This document shows, piece after piece, positions 17,120 through 32,000 of a stretch of DNA of 32,000 bases. How positions within the stretch are numbered: position 1 is the stretch's first letter; every line of letters begins with the position of its first letter. Location of the stretch: NCBI RefSeq assembly GCF_043950625.1, contig NZ_CP171007.1. One strand, written 5' to 3'. This DNA comes from Alkanindiges sp. WGS2144 (GTDB lineage Bacteria; Pseudomonadota; Gammaproteobacteria; Pseudomonadales; Moraxellaceae). The position numbers were made by a program, and so were the translations under genes. A model generated the notes under the pieces. The model was not told the origin of the DNA. It was given only the letters and a program-made list of their open reading frames with translations, and did no database searches.

Positions 17120-18116
17120 ATACTAGCACTTCCGCTGACATCATAACTTTAGCATAGTTTTTCTTTCAATCGCTCATAGGGTGTTTTTCCATCCATAGCA
17201 GCATGAGGTCTGGCATAGTTATAAAATGCCTCCCATTCCGCTAATTTAGCGTTTAGGTCGACATCATCGGTATAGTTTAATAACTGGTAAAACTCCATCT
17301 TGTCGGTCTTATGAGATCGCTCGACCTTGCCATTATGTTTGGGAGTTCGAGGCTTTATGTACCTATGATGAATTGCTAAATCGTTTAAATGCCAATGAAA
17401 TTTCGATTGGAATTCATGCCCATTATCGGTCTGGATGGTATGAATCCGAAAAGGAAACTTCTCAATAACATAATTGACAAAATCAATCGCATTAGCCTGG
17501 TTGTGCTTTTCATAGATTTTTAGTGCCCTGACTCTGGTTGCATCATCAATCGCAGTGTATTGATATCTTTTAATCCTCTTTCCATCTTGATCTTTGAAAA
17601 ATAAGAACTTTACATCAACTTGAACATGGTGGCCTGGTACTTGTTTCTCATAGCGCTGAGGAGTAGGAATGGATCGTTTTCGCTGATTCTGGGGCAGCCG
17701 ATTCAGACCATTACGTTTTAAAACGTGATATACACCCGCTGCCGAGATTTTAATTTGATGATAGCGCCATAAGTACCAACTGATCCTTACCTGCCCAAAA
17801 TGATAATGCTGACGTAAATGAAGAATCTTCTCTTCAATGGCAGGAGGCGTGCGTAACTTGGGATTTTCTGGACAGGGCTTGCTGTTGATTAGCCCAGATT
17901 CACCTTTAGTTTGGTAATTCTTTTTCCAACGATAGAAAGTATCTCGTGAAATACCAAAATAACGACAGGTGAAAGCAATATTCCCACTGTGCTCTGCATG
18001 AGCAAATACTTTTAATTTATGGGCGATTTCCCGCTGGGCTTTTGTACTCAAAATCGAAACTCCTGTGACATGAGGTAAAATTTACCAAAATGTCAGTAGA
18101 AGTCTCAATTTTCACA
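17115..18116 (-). mobile_element. IS481-family insertion sequence, 1002 bp
   Basis: The 26-bp imperfect IRs have TGT...ACA termini: TGTGAATACTAGCACTTCCGCTGACA at 17115-17140 and TGTCAGTAGAAGTCTCAATTTTCACA at 18091-18116. They match at 19 of 26 positions. There is a single DDE transposase ORF and a 7-bp duplication. Confidence 0.85.
17149..18051 (-). CDS. IS481-family DDE transposase/integrase
   Basis: The 300-aa protein has a TTG start. It has an N-terminal HTH (FGISRDTFYRWKKNY) and an rve-type core (VQVDVKF...TDNGHEF...HNGKVERSH). Confidence 0.85.
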   Translation of the reverse strand: MSTKAQREIAHKLKVFAHAEHSGNIAFTCRYFGISRDTFYRWKKNYQTKGESGLINSKPCPENPKLRTPPAIEEKILHLRQHYHFGQVRISWYLWRYHQIKISAAGVYHVLKRNGLNRLPQNQRKRSIPTPQRYEKQVPGHHVQVDVKFLFFKDQDGKRIKRYQYTAIDDATRVRALKIYEKHNQANAIDFVNYVIEKFPFRIHTIQTDNGHEFQSKFHWHLNDLAIHHRYIKPRTPKHNGKVERSHKTDKMEFYQLLNYTDDVDLNAKLAEWEAFYNYARPHAAMDGKTPYERLKEKLC

Positions 18117-19356: not shown

Positions 19357-20154
19357 ATGCAACGTTATGCCCTTGGAATTGAGTTTAATGGTCAGCATTA
19401 CCGGGGCTGGCAAACTCAGCAGGCAGGCGTTGCCAGTGTGCAGCACACCATTGAACAAGCTCTGAGCAAAATTGCTGATCATAAAATAGAACTGCATGCT
19501 GCCGGACGTACTGATGCCGGGGTGCATGCCAGCAATATGATTGCCCACTTTGACACCAGTGCCACTCGGCCAGAACGCGGCTGGATGAGGGGTGCCAATA
19601 CACTATTGCCAAAAGATATTGCCCTGCGCTGGATCGCGCCAGTCAGCAGTGATTTTCATGCCCGTTTTAAGGCATGTGCGCGACGTTATCGTTATATTAT
19701 TTACCAGCATCAATACCGGCCTGCTTCCCTGTATGGGCAGGTGACGCATGTGTATCAAAAGCTCAATGTGGATAACATGCAGCAGGCTGTGGATAAATTA
19801 GTAGGTATCCACAATTTTACCAGTTTCAGGGCTGCTGCCTGTCAATCCAGTCAACCAGTACGGCATGTGAGCCATGCCAGATTATTTCAGCATGGCGCAT
19901 TTTTGGTGCTGGATATACAAGCCAATGGTTTTTTGCATCATATGGTACGCAATATTATGGGTACACTGCTGCAAATTGGCACAGGAGAACATGAACCGGA
20001 CTGGGTGGATTATTTACTGCAAGTACAGGATCGTACCAAGGCTGGTATGACTGCTCCGGCAGATGGATTGTATTTTATTCAGGCATATTACCCGGCAGCG
20101 TTTGACTTGCCACAGGTTGATCTGGGGCCAGTCTGGCTTAACCTGCCGGATTAA
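19357..20154 (+). CDS. truA: tRNA pseudouridine(38-40) synthase
   Basis: The protein carries MQRYALGIEFNGQHYRGWQ, the catalytic AGRTDAGVHA, RRYRYII and FLHHMVRNIMG. Confidence 0.93.
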   Translation: MQRYALGIEFNGQHYRGWQTQQAGVASVQHTIEQALSKIADHKIELHAAGRTDAGVHASNMIAHFDTSATRPERGWMRGANTLLPKDIALRWIAPVSSDFHARFKACARRYRYIIYQHQYRPASLYGQVTHVYQKLNVDNMQQAVDKLVGIHNFTSFRAAACQSSQPVRHVSHARLFQHGAFLVLDIQANGFLHHMVRNIMGTLLQIGTGEHEPDWVDYLLQVQDRTKAGMTAPADGLYFIQAYYPAAFDLPQVDLGPVWLNLPD

Positions 20155-25885: not shown

Positions 25886-26968
25886 TCAATCCGGCACTTC
25901 CATAATATCACGTGGTTCCTTGCGTGGCTGCATGTTCATGTCATGGCGGAACTTGCTGGAACGTGCATAAGCCGGAATACGTACACGGTTAATAGAACCT
26001 AATGGTTGATGCTCCACCAGACAATGCCACGGATTAAACGACAATACATCATCGCCATATACACGCCGGGCTGGACTATAAGCATGCTGTGAGGGAATCA
26101 CAATTTTGCCAATCGGTTGATAATGTGATTTATCTTCGTCCCACTCAATCGAGGCATCTTCAATGGGCATTTCAGCGGGATGGGTACATAACTGGGCGCG
26201 TAGCTCATATTCCGCACCTGAACGGTTAAAGAAATCAACCACCAGATCACGAATGCCAGAGGGGCGCCCGTCAAGCTCCATGGTTTTTCCGGTCAGCTCT
26301 GTCACTGCTGGGGATAAGGGTGCAGCACTGATCTTGGCAATATAATCACCATAACGAATGGCAGCCATACTATAAAAGGTTTCGCCCAGAATATGGAGCG
26401 TGCCCATGGTTTTGAGAATCGAAGTTTTTGGAATGACCGCTCCGGCTATGGCACCAATTGGCTTGGTGAGACTGTCTCCCAGTTCTTTTAAAAAATTAGG
26501 CGTATTGTCCTGTAGCTCTGCAACCCGTTGCATGTTCCAGTAGGCTTTTACATGCCCAAATGGAATCACGGGAAAGTTCACCAGCAAAAAATCCTGTGTG
26601 ACTTCATTCTGATGCTCAGGCAAAATTTTTTCACCTTCCACCCCAATCACTTTAACTGCCATGCCATAAGCCGACGGAATATCATCATCCTTGATTTGCC
26701 CAAATGCGGTCGAATAACGAATCACCACCGGATAACGCTTGGGGCTTGCAAATAAACCCTGGGCCAGGTGCTCAGGCAAATGGTCATAAATTTCCAGGTA
26801 ACCTTTCACAATGCCGTGGCTTTTGGCATGCGCATCGCGGGTGGCATGCCGATGTTTATCAAAAGCCCGCGTATTGACCCGACTCATGGAAGTGACAATC
26901 CTGTCAATCAGCTCATCTTCATTTGGTGCTTTCACTTCGACATCTGGACTATATGGATAGTAGCGCAT
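25886..26968 (-). CDS. small catalase-related haem protein (catalase family, about 360 aa)
   Basis: The distal-side motif RDAHAKSHG resembles the catalase HAKG region. The proximal-side RIPAYARSSKFR resembles catalase R..xY..S...R with the Tyr ligand. At 360 aa it is too short for a monofunctional catalase. Confidence 0.6.
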   Translation of the reverse strand: MRYYPYSPDVEVKAPNEDELIDRIVTSMSRVNTRAFDKHRHATRDAHAKSHGIVKGYLEIYDHLPEHLAQGLFASPKRYPVVIRYSTAFGQIKDDDIPSAYGMAVKVIGVEGEKILPEHQNEVTQDFLLVNFPVIPFGHVKAYWNMQRVAELQDNTPNFLKELGDSLTKPIGAIAGAVIPKTSILKTMGTLHILGETFYSMAAIRYGDYIAKISAAPLSPAVTELTGKTMELDGRPSGIRDLVVDFFNRSGAEYELRAQLCTHPAEMPIEDASIEWDEDKSHYQPIGKIVIPSQHAYSPARRVYGDDVLSFNPWHCLVEHQPLGSINRVRIPAYARSSKFRHDMNMQPRKEPRDIMEVPD

Positions 26969-27019
26969 GACATATTCTCGGGCTGGAAAATCAATATTTA
27001 TTTGCTTTAAAAAGCTTGT

Positions 27020-27472
27020 TTAGGCGGTAGCCTGTTTTTCTTTTTGACGTTCAAACTCTTCAAAATACTGCACCGCCAGCTGTTCTTTTTGTTTATCCGT
27101 TAAAATTTTGCCGGACATCTGAAAAAACCGGTGCTCTTCTTCAGATAAATGATGATGCACCTGATCGACCAGTTTTTTGGCAGCTGCCATCCATGCGGAT
27201 GTGGTTTGATCGGCCTGTTCTACTTCTTCAAGATACTCATCAATTTTATGATGTTCCGATAGCGCATGCCGGGTTAGATCCACGCCGTTGTCATCCATTA
27301 ATAAAGGAATATAAAAATAACGCTCTTCGGCGGTTTCATGTGCTTCCAGTTCAATTTTAAATTGTTTAAAAATTTCATCCCGCTCGGCAGACGCACCGTG
27401 AGTCTGTAAAAGTTGTGCCCCAAGTTTGCGTTGTACATCATGGCTTTGACGTAGGGCTTCAAAGATATTCAT
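27020..27472 (-). CDS. hemerythrin-like (HHE cation-binding) domain protein
   Basis: The ATG at 27472 lies 8 nt after AGGTG. His/Glu motifs repeat through the protein (HDVQ, HETAEE, HHKIDE, HHHLSEEEH). It lies 51 nt upstream of, and co-oriented with, the catalase-related gene. Confidence 0.7.
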   Translation of the reverse strand: MNIFEALRQSHDVQRKLGAQLLQTHGASAERDEIFKQFKIELEAHETAEERYFYIPLLMDDNGVDLTRHALSEHHKIDEYLEEVEQADQTTSAWMAAAKKLVDQVHHHLSEEEHRFFQMSGKILTDKQKEQLAVQYFEEFERQKEKQATA

Positions 27473-27589
27473 GGCTAACACCTGTTATTGATGGGTTCAT
27501 TCGTGCATTTAAAATAACTCATTGATCTTATTGAACGTGTTACAAAGTGCGAGCAGTGTTTGATGGTTTGTAAAGAAGAATTTGGCTCG

Positions 27590-27822: not shown

Positions 27823-29604
27823 TTACGTAGAGGTCACTTTGTGTTCATAATTGTCACTATTGACCATTTTTTGTAGAAGCCTTTTAAAACCTGTGTGACG
27901 TAAAGCCTTGTTTTTTAAAGCCTGCTCTATACTGATTTGCTCACCCCATAGGTCTACTTTTTGCCGGGCACGGGTCACAGCGGTATACAATAATTCACGG
28001 CTTAACAATTCTTTAGCAGCCGATTCAATAATCACTGCAACATGATTAAACTCTGAACCCTGCGATTTATGAATAGTTAACGCAAACGCTGTTGTAATCT
28101 CATGCAATGGCAAGCGGGTAATGGCAATGCCCTGCTTTAGATGCGGAAAATACACTTGCCATTTGCCCTGTTCATCCTGCAAACACAGGCCAATATCTCC
28201 ATTAGACAACTGTAAGCCATAGTCATTACGGTTCATCATCACCGGTCGCCCGACAAACCACTCGTTAGTGCTGGCCGCACCATTGATAGACACCTGTAAG
28301 CGCTTTGACATTTCCTGATTAATTTTTTGTGTCCCTAAATGCCCGGCGCGCATCGCTGTCAAAATCCGATAGGTGTCAAAGGCAGCAAAAAGCTGTTCGG
28401 GTGCATCACCCGCTTTAAGCGCCTGAGCATAAGGGATAAAACCCTGCCATAACTGCTCAAACAATTGCTGGTCAGTCAAAGTTTGCGGGTCAACATGACG
28501 TAGCTGTTGCGGCGATTGGATAAATGCCTGCCAAAATTGTGATATGTCCTGCTGCAAAATAGCTGTAGCCAGTTGCCCAATGCCCTGTGTTGCACTAAAA
28601 CGCTTACTTTCGGTCAAATGGATCTGATAGCTTTTTAGCGCTGGCGTTTGCTGTAGATCGGCCAGTACGGCACCGGCATCTACCGCCGCCAGCTGATCGG
28701 CATCCCCCAGAATAATTAAACGCGTTCCTGCGGCAATGGCGGCAAATAGCAAACTGGCCAGCGCCAGATCCAGCATGGAACCTTCATCCAGCACAATCAA
28801 GTCATAGGGTAAGGGTGCCTGTGCATGATAACGTGGTTTGCCATTACTACCCAAACCCAGTAAGCGGTGCACGGTTTGCGCCGTTTGAATATGGCTGCTT
28901 TCAATACCTGATTCCCGAAAGGCAGTATCTAGAACACTTTGCATACGCTGTGCGGCCTTGCCAGTAGGGGCAGCCAGTGCAATCCGCAAGTCCGGCTGGG
29001 CCTGCTGCAATGCCTTGACAATACGTACCAGCGTATAGGTTTTACCGGTACCAGGGCCACCGGTAATCAGGCTAAAAGAATGCCGGGCAGCCAGCACAAT
29101 GGCTTGGCGCTGTAAAGTATTGGCTGTTTCACTGGCATCAAATTGTACAGATACTGCACGGACAGGTTCTAAAATGCGTGTTAATTGTTCAGCCAGCAGG
29201 TTTTCCTGTTGCCACTGCCGGTAAAAATACAGATAATCCTCCGCCCTGACCAGTGGGGCGGGCTGCTGCCTGGCAGTGGCCTCATCCACAATAGCCGGGT
29301 GTTGCATTAAGCTGGAATTCAGGCTATGTTGATCAATTAATAGACACGTATGTCCAGCTTCCAATGCTCGGCCAAGATGAACAATAATTTGTTTTAATTC
29401 ATCTTTTTGGCAATCCTTTAGGAATGGATATAACTGGGCCAGATGCTCAGCCAACGCAACAAACCATGCGTTTTCTTCCGTGTCTAGTATAAAGTCTGGG
29501 TTATCAACAGACTTATTCACAGTGTTATCAACAGGTTTATCCACAAACTTATCCGCAAGGTTATCAACAGAGTTATCCACAGGTTGCGTATAACTACAAT
29601 TCAA
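27823..29604 (-). CDS. recD: exodeoxyribonuclease V alpha subunit RecD
   Basis: Matching motifs are Walker A GGPGTGKT, LAAPTGKAAQRM, VLDEGSMLDL, the helicase motifs and C-terminal TIHKSQGSEF...LLYTAVTRAR. The start is uncertain: the TTG at 29604 lies 3 nt after the recB stop, and the alternatives are GTG codons inside the 12-bp repeat array. Confidence 0.88.
   Translation of the reverse strand: MNCSYTQPVDNSVDNLADKFVDKPVDNTVNKSVDNPDFILDTEENAWFVALAEHLAQLYPFLKDCQKDELKQIIVHLGRALEAGHTCLLIDQHSLNSSLMQHPAIVDEATARQQPAPLVRAEDYLYFYRQWQQENLLAEQLTRILEPVRAVSVQFDASETANTLQRQAIVLAARHSFSLITGGPGTGKTYTLVRIVKALQQAQPDLRIALAAPTGKAAQRMQSVLDTAFRESGIESSHIQTAQTVHRLLGLGSNGKPRYHAQAPLPYDLIVLDEGSMLDLALASLLFAAIAAGTRLIILGDADQLAAVDAGAVLADLQQTPALKSYQIHLTESKRFSATQGIGQLATAILQQDISQFWQAFIQSPQQLRHVDPQTLTDQQLFEQLWQGFIPYAQALKAGDAPEQLFAAFDTYRILTAMRAGHLGTQKINQEMSKRLQVSINGAASTNEWFVGRPVMMNRNDYGLQLSNGDIGLCLQDEQGKWQVYFPHLKQGIAITRLPLHEITTAFALTIHKSQGSEFNHVAVIIESAAKELLSRELLYTAVTRARQKVDLWGEQISIEQALKNKALRHTGFKRLLQKMVNSDNYEHKVTST
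29501..29584. repeat. seven tandem 12-bp units, each carrying a DnaA-box-like 9-mer
   Basis: The 9-mers start at 29501, 29513, 29525, 29537, 29549, 29561 and 29573. In order they are TTATCAACA, TTATTCACA, TTATCAACA, TTATCCACA, TTATCCGCA, TTATCAACA and TTATCCACA. On the minus strand the array encodes (V/A)(D/N)(N/K)x repeated seven times. Confidence 0.9.
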
Positions 29605-29607
29605 TAT

Positions 29608-32000
29608 TTAATGCTGTCCCAGAAGCTGATCCAGCTGCTCAATGAGTTCAATATCGGCTTGCCAGTGCAATATCCCTGTCTGGCTGCTGCTAGCCTGCAT
29701 GCCACGCAAATACAAATACACGGCGCCACCCAAATGTTGCTCGGACTGATAGTCCGGCAAACGCACTTTTAAATAACGGTGCAAAGCCACCTGATACAAA
29801 ATAGCTTGCAGCCAGTAACCTGACTGGCTCATATTGTCACGCAAGGCATTTTCCTGATAACAATCAAACTCATCGCCCAAGTAATTGCTCTTATAATCTG
29901 CAATATAAAATCTGCCCTGATGCTCATACACCAGGTCAATAAAACCATGCAGATAACGCGCATGAAATACAGGATTGAGCGGTGCAACCGGAACCTGATA
30001 TTGCTGTAATAGCGCATGAATGGCCTGCACGGGCATACGCTGTGTGGATACCGCCAGATGAAACTCAAACTCATGAATTTGTGTGGTCAAACCGGCAAGT
30101 GTGGCCTCATCCGGTAGTCTGGCATGCAGAATATGGTTAAACCAGTCAACCATTTGCTCCATCTCAACAGGCGCTTGCTTGTAGCGTTCAAGCTGGGCGT
30201 AAATGGCAAAGTTCTGAAGCTTTTTTTCAAAAATTCTGGGCCACTGTTCAGGGTAAGCCGGGTTGAGCTGCTCTAAAATATGATGCAGGCAATCCCCTGC
30301 ATTGGCTCCGCGAGGAAAGCGAAAACATAGCGGTAAAAGCGCAGGCTCTGCTTCAGTTTGTGCTTGTATTAAGGCAACTGGTATGGCTGCGCCGGATTTA
30401 CCGTCATGCTCATCATCGTGCATTAAGGTGTCGGCAGCAGGTACGTCTTCCGGTAAGACAGAAGTCCGCCTTTGGTGGCGTGATAACTGGCTAAAGCTGG
30501 TTAATCCCCAGGCATAAACCTGATGATTGGGTAAAGGCCGCGCCTGAATATCAACGCTTGTATCAACTTGCTTATAAAAAAATTGTGGGCATTCACTTAA
30601 GCCATCCTGTACGGCCGTATTATCATCGGCCCAGCCATCGCGTGCAGGGGGCAGCCAGTGATATAATGCACCTTTTATTTTACCCTTGTCATCCACAGGT
30701 GGCGGCGCAACAACGTATAACCGCACACTGGCGCGGGTTAGGGCCACATAAATCAGGCGGCGCAGTTCGGCCTGTTCACGCTCCTGATGCGCTTGCAGTT
30801 GCACTGCATCACGGTCAGAAAATGCCAGCATGCGCTGTTGGTCTTGCTCATAAAAAATAATTTTAGACGGCGACGCACGGTTTGACTTGTCTAGCCCGGC
30901 CACAAAAACAATAGGAAACTCCAGTCCCTTGGATTTGTGAATGGTCATCAGTTGCACACCCTGCTCACCCGATAAGCGGCGCTCCAGTTCCCATTCACGC
31001 TGCTGCGGCTGGCTAATTTGCCGCATTAGCCAGGCCAGTAAATGATGCTGACCCTGAATTTTTTCACTTTGCTGGTGAATAATTTCAAGCAAATGGCGTA
31101 AATTGACCACCAACCGCTCCGCATGTGGTTGTCTGGACAATTGCTGCCAGATATCAAAATGCTCACTCAATTGTTGCCATGCAGCCAGAAAACCAGCCTT
31201 ATACCAGCGCTCACCCAGCGTAAAAAACAGGCCCTGCAAACTGGCCAACTCATCAGGGTTTTGATCAAGTTCGATCAGATCACTTAAGGTTTTACCCATC
31301 ATCAGACCAGACAAGGCACGGCGTAAACGACCTTCATGATACGGTGCCAGCATGGTTTGTAATACCGCAACAAGATCTTCTGCCAAAGGACTTTGAAAAA
31401 TACTGACCCGGGAACCACGCCATACCGGCACATTGGCACGCTGCAACGCGGCCTGTACTTTGTCCAGCTGGCTGTTGGAACGGCACAACACCGCAATATG
31501 ATTGGGCGTGATGGTCTCTTGTGTTGAGTTATTTTTAAGAAATACCTGCCCCTGCTGGCTAGTTTTGAGTAGCTGAATAATTTGCCAGGCCACCTGCTCA
31601 AATTCGGTTTTTTGTTCTTCTACACACAGCAGACGCAAGGGGCGATGGTTAATATTTGGCCCGTCATGCAGCTCGGCCGTATTGCGACCACCTGCCTGCA
31701 CCGGTTGGTAATACACATTTTCGCCCAGTTCCAGTGTGAAACTAAACAAACGGTCGACCGCAGCCACCAGCGGCGCAATAGAACGCTGGTTAAATTTTAA
31801 AAAATGCTGCTGACCACCCAGTTGCATTACTTCTGTTTTAGCACGCTGATAGGTCAGCATGTCGCCACCACGGAAGCCATAAATGGCCTGCTTGGGATCA
31901 CCCACCAACACCAGGCATGAGCGAGGATTAAGCAAAGCACTGCTTTGCCCGAGCGAACGAGGAAAAAGCAGAGCATTGCTCTGCCCTGAGGCGCACCGCG
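29608..32000 (-). CDS. recB: exodeoxyribonuclease V beta subunit RecB (5-prime part beyond the window)
   Basis: The frame stays open to the window edge, so the TTG at 31935 in the ORF track is not the real start. Matching features are VLVGDPKQAIYGFRGGD, MTIHKSKGLEFP, LIYVALTRA and the C-terminal nuclease motif GFIDLVYEHQGRFYIADYKSN. Confidence 0.9.
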   Translation of the reverse strand, partial: RCASGQSNALLFPRSLGQSSALLNPRSCLVLVGDPKQAIYGFRGGDMLTYQRAKTEVMQLGGQQHFLKFNQRSIAPLVAAVDRLFSFTLELGENVYYQPVQAGGRNTAELHDGPNINHRPLRLLCVEEQKTEFEQVAWQIIQLLKTSQQGQVFLKNNSTQETITPNHIAVLCRSNSQLDKVQAALQRANVPVWRGSRVSIFQSPLAEDLVAVLQTMLAPYHEGRLRRALSGLMMGKTLSDLIELDQNPDELASLQGLFFTLGERWYKAGFLAAWQQLSEHFDIWQQLSRQPHAERLVVNLRHLLEIIHQQSEKIQGQHHLLAWLMRQISQPQQREWELERRLSGEQGVQLMTIHKSKGLEFPIVFVAGLDKSNRASPSKIIFYEQDQQRMLAFSDRDAVQLQAHQEREQAELRRLIYVALTRASVRLYVVAPPPVDDKGKIKGALYHWLPPARDGWADDNTAVQDGLSECPQFFYKQVDTSVDIQARPLPNHQVYAWGLTSFSQLSRHQRRTSVLPEDVPAADTLMHDDEHDGKSGAAIPVALIQAQTEAEPALLPLCFRFPRGANAGDCLHHILEQLNPAYPEQWPRIFEKKLQNFAIYAQLERYKQAPVEMEQMVDWFNHILHARLPDEATLAGLTTQIHEFEFHLAVSTQRMPVQAIHALLQQYQVPVAPLNPVFHARYLHGFIDLVYEHQGRFYIADYKSNYLGDEFDCYQENALRDNMSQSGYWLQAILYQVALHRYLKVRLPDYQSEQHLGGAVYLYLRGMQASSSQTGILHWQADIELIEQLDQLLGQH
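31915..31986. repeat. two tandem 36-bp units inside recB, each with a perfect 17-bp palindrome
   Basis: The palindromes are GCAAAGCA-C-TGCTTTGC (31932-31948) and GCAGAGCA-T-TGCTCTGC (31968-31984), exactly 36 bp apart. The units are about 75% identical. They encode GQSNALLFPRSL / GQSSALLNPRSC. Confidence 0.8.

Follow-up and report, generated by a model that had tools for sequence, protein, structure and literature searches.

The recB/recD junction of Alkanindiges sp. WGS2144 carries seven DnaA-box-like 9-mers arranged head-to-tail at an exact 12-bp period. The array is conserved across at least two genera and, as read from the alignments of its units, purifying selection acts on the DNA motif and not on the peptide that the motif spells. 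We lean, with a little better than even confidence, towards the view that it is a conserved DnaA-binding site gating recD expression, composed of six overlapping double boxes. DnaA is the replication initiator and also regulates a few replication, nucleotide and repair genes through single or paired intergenic boxes; what is new here is an array that is long, strictly phased and unidirectional and lies where the genes for two subunits of the main enzyme of double-strand-break repair meet. To our knowledge, recD is not a known DnaA target, and none of the literature that we searched describes DnaA boxes arrayed at recD.

The array occupies positions 29501-29584, plus strand, of the window, the 32,000-nucleotide stretch of contig NZ_CP171007.1 that was analysed. 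Both recB and recD are minus-strand genes, and the TTATCCACA orientation of the boxes, read on the plus strand, corresponds to the antisense strand of recD. A pattern search returned seven same-orientation 9-mers with at most one mismatch from TTATCCACA over 29501-29581, with starts at 29501, 29513, 29525, 29537, 29549, 29561 and 29573; in plus-strand order they read TTATCAACA, TTATTCACA, TTATCAACA, TTATCCACA, TTATCCGCA, TTATCAACA and TTATCCACA. Tandem Repeats Finder gives a period of 12 with 6.9 copies (29500-29582), so that the sequence and both programs agree with the original prediction, made from the sequence alone, of seven such 9-mers from 29501 onward. Its tally was also reproduced: scored with the box consensus of other Gammaproteobacteria, which was taken as valid for this host and may not be the host's own, two boxes are perfect, one (TTATTCACA, unit 6, 29513-29521) conforms to the stringent consensus TTATNCACA and the other four each differ at one position. 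The perfect boxes are the recB-proximal one (29573-29581), which is transcribed first and is proposed as the high-affinity anchor, and unit 4 (29537-29545), whose GTG (29544-29542) is the start in the database gene call P0001 (573 aa).

Seven boxes are thereby packed within 81 bp outside oriC. The window as a whole holds 20 matches with at most one mismatch, compared with 9.05 ± 2.87 in shuffled sequences, and none of 100 shuffles reached 20. The per-site chance of such a box is 28/4^9 = 1.1e-4, which by arithmetic puts seven in register at ~1e-28 per position; a chance origin of the array is excluded. Throughout 1.37 Mb of DNA searched, in-phase runs of at least four boxes were found only at recD 5' ends.

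As predicted, the array begins 24 nt past the recB stop codon (TAA, 29608-29610, minus strand) and covers early recD codons, spanning the first ~35 codons of the ORF. On the coding strand, each unit reads (T)GTG GAT AAC NNT and encodes V-D-N/K-x. The start of recD is uncertain: the longest ORF (27823-29604, minus strand, 593 codons) opens with a TTG at 29604-29602, for which the Shine-Dalgarno (SD) pairing estimate is -3.9 kcal/mol, and the in-array GTG codons at 29580, 29544 and 29520 are the other candidates. The TTG had been placed correctly beforehand, whereas the three GTG positions had been given 2 nt too high (29582, 29546 and 29522). An open frame through the array is no evidence of translation, because the box constraints forbid stops in that frame; GTG, GAT, AAN and NNT codons cannot be stops, and the frame is open by construction.

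The product was identified as RecD by its similarity to E. coli RecD (1W36_D, phmmer E = 8.6e-75), by homologues named exodeoxyribonuclease V subunit alpha and by its position downstream of recB. The phmmer alignment starts at residue 106 here and at residue 87 in E. coli. In the AlphaFold model, residues 1–44, encoded by 29473-29604 (minus strand), have a pLDDT <50, with values of 25–34 over residues 1–40, and the fold begins with a helix at 46–57. The array would thus lie in a predicted disordered N-terminal tail, and both results are consistent with the earlier claim that this stretch has no counterpart in E. coli RecD.

We compared 20 recD loci from Alkanindiges-like bacteria and Acinetobacter, nine being array-bearing Moraxellaceae among the matches listed (genome scan and RecD alignment) and 11 coming from exact protein look-up. 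The array is present at the recD start in 20 of 20, in the same orientation, with the 12-bp period and with spacers of exactly 3 bp throughout. It counts seven or eight units in the 12 Alkanindiges-like loci and three to eight in the eight Acinetobacter loci, many Acinetobacter having only three. Among the culturable carriers are Alkanindiges illinoisensis and, in Acinetobacter, A. lwoffii (with three units), A. proteolyticus, A. courvalinii, A. beijerinckii and A. chinensis. The leading well-formed unit is perfect at 18 of the 20 loci, compared with only ~20% of all units. RecD identity is 58–75% among the 12 Alkanindiges-like loci and only about 40% between the genera carrying the array; the relatives listed in the homologue search with A. 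proteolyticus RecD were all at least 80% identical. The array starts 1–75 nt past the recB stop and straddles the recD start at every intergenic length. It is absent from the five Psychrobacter and Moraxella loci examined, and of a further 146 RecD representatives at 50% identity only four carry the repeat. Several Acinetobacter species are also without it (e.g. P0086 from A. indicus, P0092 and P0096), so the array is dispensable in some lineages.

The constraint on the units was measured in 120 units from 19 loci, the phylogenetic relatedness of which makes raw unit counts overstate independence, an effect mitigated by a column-wise test. The nine box positions carry 1.04–1.81 bits each and the spacer positions 0.33–0.43 bits, and the consensus, TTATC(C/A)ACA, is the DnaA box; variation is tolerated at positions 3 and 5, which are known to be degenerate in that box. 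T fills the third position of the variable x codon, immediately before GTG, in 116 of the 120 units, against a background T3 frequency of 0.30. Valine is encoded by GTG (68 units), GTT (26), GTA (1) and GTC (0), compared with background frequencies of 0.39, 0.23, 0.22 and 0.16, respectively. Residue 2 varies between D, N, H and Y, all with NAT codons that match the N of TTATNCACA, while residue 3 alternates between N and K (AAN), its third base falling outside the box. In the column-wise test, a codon alignment of 12 loci, the four x columns hold two to six amino acids (four to six in three of them) with T3 in 12/12, compared with 2.2% of the variable columns in the rest of RecD in which 11 or more of the 12 sequences share the third base.

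These data bear on the two readings that the original prediction had left side by side, an in-frame coding microsatellite and a functional DnaA-binding array. The comparison of relatives proposed with it has now been made, and shows a stable number of units in the 12 Alkanindiges-like loci and box positions that are more constrained than the spacers. In addition, unit-specific spacers are kept across species, and the units are therefore orthologous and not homogenised. Variable copy number, homogenised units and constraint on the peptide, the marks of a coding microsatellite, are thus not displayed by the array, and the first reading is rejected on the stable unit number, the orthology of the units and the constraint on synonymous and third-codon box bases. 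A chance or neutral slippage product without function would fit a tandem repeat whose period is divisible by three and which lies in a dispensable tail, but has a negligible probability, given the persistence of the array across genera with such divergent RecD proteins, its steady unit number, the lack of homogenisation and its position-specific constraint. The second reading gains support at the sequence level only, from the DNA-level selection and from the match to double boxes described below.

Selection on the peptide itself was weighed against the same data. A (V/A)(D/N)(N/K)x tail of RecD with a role in RecBCD, resembling DnaA boxes merely through codon choice, would fit the reading frame, which the array shares with recD at every locus, and the Alkanindiges-like loci, where a good SD sequence and start at or ahead of unit 1 make translation of the units probable. 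The fixed third-codon bases and the near absence of GTA and GTC contradict it, as do the chemically unrelated replacements at residue 2, all of which retain NAT, the predicted disorder of the tail and a frame that would be open in any case. Indeed, some units lie outside the recD ORF. At locus L092, the TAA of unit 1 is the recB stop, another in-frame TAA occurs within unit 2, and the ATG lies in unit 3; loci L003, L004, L007 and L086 have an in-frame stop one codon upstream of unit 1. In eight of eight Acinetobacter loci (all but L092), the best SD-start pair is formed by GAGGA of the penultimate unit and GTG of the last well-formed unit, in agreement with the PGAP annotations, and the Acinetobacter array therefore appears to be mostly 5'-UTR. 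Units outside the ORF and lineage-specific starts indicate that conservation applies to the DNA and not to the peptide as a translated product, and we regard selection on the peptide as very improbable.

Another explanation is a cis element unrelated to DnaA, which could be the target of another DNA-binding protein with a similar motif or a multi-GUG translation-initiation device with GGA/GAGGA SD-like elements. Every unit has its GTG ~7–8 nt downstream of the GGA of the preceding unit, and the Acinetobacter TGAGGATAA unit resembles the recD Shine-Dalgarno sequence. We nevertheless consider such an element improbable: the 120-unit consensus is exactly the DnaA box, down to the tolerance at positions 3 and 5, neither the conserved T preceding GTG nor the AA following GAT plays a part in SD or start function, the in-array GTGs of the Alkanindiges-like loci have weak SD-pairing energies (about -3 kcal/mol), and the spacers show the very preferences seen in non-coding DnaA box pairs. 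The latter were obtained from metagenomes, where a scan for adjacent perfect pairs yielded >120 loci, none with more than three in-phase units; some of the non-coding tandem pairs flank dnaA/dnaN. The preferences C/G/A, T/C and C/A/T at the three spacer positions (CTC, CTT, ACC and GTC being the commonest) are common to these pairs and to the recD arrays.

DnaA is a regulator of repair and replication genes in E. coli, where ChIP-seq showed binding to box pairs spaced by 2 or 3 bp and a sharp loss of binding when one bp is added to the spacer (PMC11317965). The uniform orientation and spacing of the boxes at recD conform to the rule derived from these pairs (PMC11317965). The double boxes of polA, purH, nrdA, mioC, dnaA, datA, DARS1 and DARS2 are, like the array, head-to-tail 9-mers with a 3-bp spacer that join a near-consensus box to a weaker one, the strong box usually being the 3' one in the TTATCCACA orientation; they also share with it the spacers GAG, which is frequent in E. 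coli, and AAG (CTC and CTT on the other strand) and the association with replication and repair genes (PMC11317965). The spacing, spacer sequences and weak-then-strong polarity of the array therefore match those of double DnaA boxes bound in vivo. Unlike them, the recD array chains six pairs into seven in-phase boxes and is intra-operonic, placed at or across the beginning of a coding sequence, where a putative DnaA site doubles as codons.

The right-half (R4) array of E. coli oriC has a high-affinity anchor followed by same-orientation weaker sites 2–3 bp apart, which are filled cooperatively by ATP-DnaA. Judged also by the oriC row of Table 1 in PMC11317965, this anchor-plus-weaker-sites layout resembles that at recD, which differs from oriC by its location between recB and recD coding sequence and by its strict 12-bp period, the only near-helical period that fits the reading frame. 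Replication origins are intergenic box clusters next to an AT-rich unwinding element, usually adjoining dnaA/dnaN or gidA, where the GC skew switches. An origin at this site was rejected on these coding flanks and on the GC skew: the cumulative skew is nearly monotonic over the window, with no inflection or sustained reversal, and neither dnaA nor dnaN was among the window proteins scanned.

Under the DnaA reading that we prefer, DnaA, preferentially ATP-DnaA, would bind the perfect recB-proximal box and then oligomerise head-to-tail over the six weaker boxes, covering ~84 bp with the polarity that we infer from the R4-anchored low-affinity array. The nucleoprotein complex would stand in the path of RNA polymerase arriving from recB; in Acinetobacter it would cover, or closely follow, a recD-proximal promoter, the 5'-UTR, the Shine-Dalgarno sequence and the start codon. 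Transcription of recD relative to recB would fall in proportion to DnaA availability, and the RecD content of RecBCD, hence its nuclease/recombinase balance, would be tuned to the replication-initiation state. Up to seven DnaA molecules would be held as a by-product, and the V-D-N/K-x peptide would be a tolerated read-out of the boxes in the disordered RecD tail. The most far-reaching form of this reading, a DnaA filament acting as a recB-recD gate that directly sets the RecD:RecBC ratio by initiation status or replication stress in Acinetobacter and relatives, is put forward tentatively, as something possible but short of probable.

Four of the seven boxes (TTATCAACA three times and TTATCCGCA once) do not satisfy the stringent TTATNCACA consensus, an observation that runs against the DnaA reading, and their occupancy would need cooperativity.

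The DnaA roadblocks known to us involve single boxes or pairs; we know of none between the subunit genes of one enzyme complex and of none with a seven-box array. According to work cited in PMC11317965, DnaA bound to a box in a transcribed region of E. coli stops elongating RNA polymerase and exerts polarity on the downstream gene. Our literature search returned nothing on the orientation dependence of such roadblocks.

Regulation in E. coli takes no more than one box pair; with seven boxes the array has more than a simple transcriptional operator requires, which leaves room for a role in titration or in the DnaA cycle. The array could therefore be a DnaA-management site, either a datA-like or box-cluster sink or a DARS-like element, which would titrate DnaA or alter its nucleotide state, with the recD 5' end merely tolerating it and any effect on recD incidental. 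Double boxes are the basis of datA, DARS1 and DARS2 in E. coli, the last two of which adjoin the repair genes uvrB and mutH (PMC11317965), stable B. subtilis clusters bind DnaA as set by local box density and affinity (PMC2533591), and recent experiments support chromosomal DnaA titration (PMC12371093). Like datA and the B. subtilis clusters, which are non-origin multi-box sites with stable DnaA binding that can affect neighbouring genes and initiator availability (PMC2533591), the array consists of several close boxes outside oriC; those sites are intergenic, of mixed orientation and irregularly spaced, and datA needs IHF, whereas the recD array is regular, unidirectional, partly coding and tied to the start of one gene. 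Loci of the datA type are also marked by stimulated hydrolysis of DnaA-ATP or a measurable influence on initiation, and by a location near oriC. DARS-type sequences, which share only the 3-bp-spaced boxes with it, promote ADP release from DnaA; their requirements are a specific box core and, for DARS2, sites for IHF/Fis. A management role is disfavoured by the three units of many Acinetobacter, a poor sink into which the recD SD sequence and start codon are built, and by the tie of the array to the recD start codon in every lineage while the recB-recD spacer ranges from ~1 to 75 nt. This fixed position at the recD translation start favours, and does not settle, a coupling of DnaA status to recD over a DnaA sink, and we judge the management role rather unlikely, though not to be neglected.

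The pattern points, on sequence evidence, to an undescribed link between replication control and the recombination enzyme, with an array maintained by DNA-level selection even in places where the boxes are translated. Should DnaA bind, initiation control would be linked mechanistically to RecBCD composition in a lineage that takes in clinically important, naturally transformable Acinetobacter; the growth of DnaA oligomers along 3-bp-spaced sites could be studied on the array as a natural substrate that is independent of the origin, and the array would be a textbook example of dual coding, with a regulatory array overprinted on recD codons or 5'-UTR. If the gate operates, the initiator would directly set the switch between the DNA-destroying RecBCD and the recombinogenic RecBC. 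The hypothesis is directly testable because synonymous changes can destroy all seven boxes.

Other elements were considered at the junction. Fur boxes (GATAAT hexamers) and CRP sites (TGTGA) were rejected by inspection, since they account for neither the periodicity nor the remainder of the unit, and an RNA element was rejected on the lack of any Rfam match at E ≤ 1 and an mRNA fold z-score of +0.81. A promoter and terminator scan of 29300-30000 gave counts not above those of shuffled sequences. The 3' part of recB occupies 29608-31935 on the minus strand, where the ORF listing begins at an internal TTG, and the full gene likely extends past the window edge. Its assignment agrees with the orthologous loci, in which the neighbours at the recB position carry UvrD-helicase and PDDEXK_1 Pfam domains and recB lies upstream of recD in every case.

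On the plus strand of the window, positions 29501–29581 read gTTATCAACAgacTTATTCACAgtgTTATCAACAggtTTATCCACAaacTTATCCGCAaggTTATCAACAgagTTATCCACAggt. A pattern search found seven 9-mers within one mismatch of TTATCCACA, in a common orientation and with gaps of exactly 3 bp, and Tandem Repeats Finder returned a period of 12 with 6.9 copies. Sequence, pattern search, and repeat finder thus confirm the original prediction of seven same-orientation boxes with a 12-bp period at the recB/recD junction; its description was accurate, except that the coordinates of the GTG codons within the array were 2 too high. A chance origin was ruled out: the window contains 20 DnaA-box matches against 9.05 ± 2.87 in shuffled sequences, seven in-register boxes have a p of ~1e-28 per position by our arithmetic, and in-phase runs of at least four boxes are confined to recD 5′ ends in the 1.37 Mb of DNA examined. 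In the ORF listing, recB ends with a TAA at 29610–29608 (minus strand), and the longest recD ORF extends on the same strand from a TTG at 29604 to 27823; the public gene call of RecD (P0001, 573 aa) uses the unit-4 GTG at 29544 as its start. Each unit reads (T)GTG GAT AAC NNT on the coding strand, encoding V-D-N/K-x seven times. In the AlphaFold model, residues 1–40 have a pLDDT of 25–34 and the fold begins at helix 46–57, the RecD tail being, according to this prediction, a permissive site for writing a DNA motif.

RecD of A. illinoisensis (Alkanindiges) is 72% identical to that of the window, and homologues at 58–75% identity all open with 5–8 (V/A/M)(D/N/H/Y/E)(N/K)x units. The same N-terminal units are observed in many Acinetobacter RecD proteins (~40–45% identity) and in a large Acinetobacter group including A. 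proteolyticus, modestus, dispersus, courvalinii, tjernbergiae, and beijerinckii. At the DNA level, a same-orientation array of 12-bp period stands at the very start of recD in all 20 related loci of our sample, with 7–8 units in the 12 Alkanindiges-like loci and 3–8 in the 8 Acinetobacter loci; as the loci are related, these unit counts are non-independent. No array was found at the Psychrobacter and Moraxella recD loci examined, it is missing in some Acinetobacter, e.g., A. indicus, and, of 146 additional RecD representatives from 50% identity clusters, only 4 have the V-D-N/K-x repeat. Given this distribution over recD loci and homologues, the array is old in the Acinetobacter/Alkanindiges lineage rather than recently expanded there. 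Spacers are unit-specific across species, unit 4, for example, reading ...AAA CCT in most loci; because units retain their own spacers, neither slippage nor gene conversion has homogenised the array. These spacers and the persistence of the array over the lineage make a neutral microsatellite unlikely.

Among 120 units from 19 loci, information per position amounts to 1.04–1.81 bits over the nine box positions and 0.33–0.43 bits over the three spacer positions. The first T of each TGTGGATAA occupies the third position of the x codon just before it, a codon that is highly variable, and is present in 116/120 units; elsewhere in recD, T has a third-position frequency of 0.30. Valine is encoded by GTG (68), GTT (26), GTA (1), and GTC (0), against a background of 0.39/0.23/0.22/0.16. 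Residue 2 is D, N, H, or Y, chemically unrelated residues that all have NAT codons, the first base of which is the N of TTATNCACA, while residue 3 is either N or K, since the box includes only the AA of its codon. In a codon alignment of 12 Alkanindiges-like recD genes, the four ungapped x columns hold 2 to 6 amino acids (4–6 in three of them) with a third base T in 12/12; of the columns with at least three amino acids elsewhere in RecD, only 2.2% share one third base in at least 11/12. Judging from these sequence patterns, selection acts on the DNA and not on the peptide.

GTG, GAT, AAN, and NNT are never stop codons, so the frame through the array is open by construction and an ORF across it is not evidence of translation. 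In locus L092, the TAA of unit 1 is the recB stop, a second in-frame TAA lies within unit 2, and the ATG is found in unit 3; an in-frame stop one codon ahead of unit 1 is present in L003, L004, L007, and L086. The penultimate unit is TGAGGATAA in 8/8 Acinetobacter loci (all examined except L092), and its GAGGA is the best Shine-Dalgarno match to serve the GTG in the last well-formed unit (~−6 kcal/mol, 8/8 loci). NCBI annotations often start recD at this GTG, other sources at unit 1 or unit 4. Public annotations of Acinetobacter recD conflict, with starts at the unit-1, unit-4, or last-unit GTG or at an ATG just before the conserved Trp (loci L003–L008 and L061; proteins P0093/P0094, P0109/P0095, and P0141–P0148). 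In the Alkanindiges-like clade, the best Shine-Dalgarno sequence and start are at or just before unit 1, so that in this clade the array is probably translated. The array peptide is therefore not consistently translated, and this, together with the box-base constraint on codons and the predicted low-pLDDT tail, makes a repeat selected for a peptide function unlikely.

The unit consensus is exactly TTATC(C/A)ACA, with tolerated changes mainly at positions 3 and 5, where the DnaA box is degenerate. The recB-proximal well-formed unit is perfect in 18/20 loci, compared with ~1/5 of all units; read as TTATCCACA, it forms a strong anchor on the 3′ side of a series of weaker sites, a polarity that may be likened to that of the R4-anchored array carried by oriC. 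In E. coli, ChIP-seq detected DnaA almost only at "double DnaA boxes," head-to-tail and 2 or 3 bp apart, as at purH, polA, datA, oriC, and DARS1/2; at a typical site, a weak box is joined through GAG or AAG to a strong box on its 3′ side, and one added base pair between boxes strongly lowers binding (PMC11317965). The recD array strings together six double-box-like pairs agreeing with this geometry, and its commonest coding-strand spacers, CTC, CCT, GTC, and ACC, are those of the E. coli double boxes. The same spacers occur in 72 non-coding tandem perfect pairs among the metagenome matches listed, in which the spacer has C/A/G but never T at its first position, T/C at the second, and C/A/T at the third; some metagenome pairs are located in the interval from dnaA to dnaN or immediately ahead of dnaA. 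The exact consensus and the spacers argue against recognition by a different factor and against a translation device with several starts, both unlikely. An RNA-level explanation was dropped, as there was no Rfam match and mRNA folding was not unusual. From sequence, we consider it highly probable that DnaA binds the array.

The array begins 1–75 nt past the recB stop and, at any spacer length, straddles the recD translation-initiation region. DnaA bound in transcribed DNA is a roadblock to RNA polymerase, and repair and replication genes are under DnaA regulation (PMC11317965). We lean toward a DnaA oligomer covering the junction and lowering recD relative to recB: the leading perfect box would nucleate the oligomer, which would span the junction so that rising DnaA availability decreases recD expression relative to recB, and the output of RecBCD versus RecBC would be tuned via the recD level. 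The main rival, for which we see about one chance in four, has the array serving chiefly as a DnaA sink or as an element like datA or DARS that only happens to reside in a tolerant spot; seven boxes do exceed the needs of an operator, but a pure sink is at odds with Acinetobacter arrays of three units and with the strict linkage to the recD start. DnaA boxes, double boxes, box clusters, and DnaA roadblocks are already known. No description of DnaA boxes at recD was found in the literature, and what appears to be new is a strictly phased, unidirectional array of seven boxes, its overprinting on coding sequence or 5′-UTR, its location between two RecBCD subunit genes, and its conservation across genera.

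A second small cluster lies within coding sequence at 19767–19813, inside the truA ORF (19357–20154, plus strand): perfect TGTGGATAA boxes at 19767 and 19788, 21 bp apart, are followed by an inverted GTATCCACA at 19805, the encoded peptide being NVDNMQQAVDKLVGIHNF. By chance, the whole window should contain only ~0.24 perfect boxes. Head-to-tail perfect pairs separated by 3 bp occur frequently across very diverse bacteria (at least 120 metagenome matches, L093–L212), share a preference for CTC, CTT, ACC, and GTC, and lie in non-coding DNA in 72/130 cases among the matches listed. Two of these loci (L183:1740 and L202:652) have ~10 boxes within 500 bp between serS and a trmK-like methyltransferase gene of a low-GC organism, which may represent a non-origin DnaA-box cluster. 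A recurrent ORF, "...KPNLIYVKNFVDKDVDN...", from gut and other metagenomes (L097, L107, L119, and L145) bears a perfect double DnaA box that is likewise read in the VDN frame. The 12–18 kb region of the window has a lower GC content (0.37–0.39) and contains a minus-strand ORF (17149–18051) with integrase-core (rve) and transposase helix-turn-helix domains, which looks like an insertion sequence. Downstream of recD, a hemerythrin-domain gene and a weak catalase-like gene occupy 25886–27481 (minus strand); the hemerythrin gene is also found in L081–L086, with the catalase-like gene identified in L082 and L083 only, and is replaced by a TauE-family gene in the more distant loci L087–L091.
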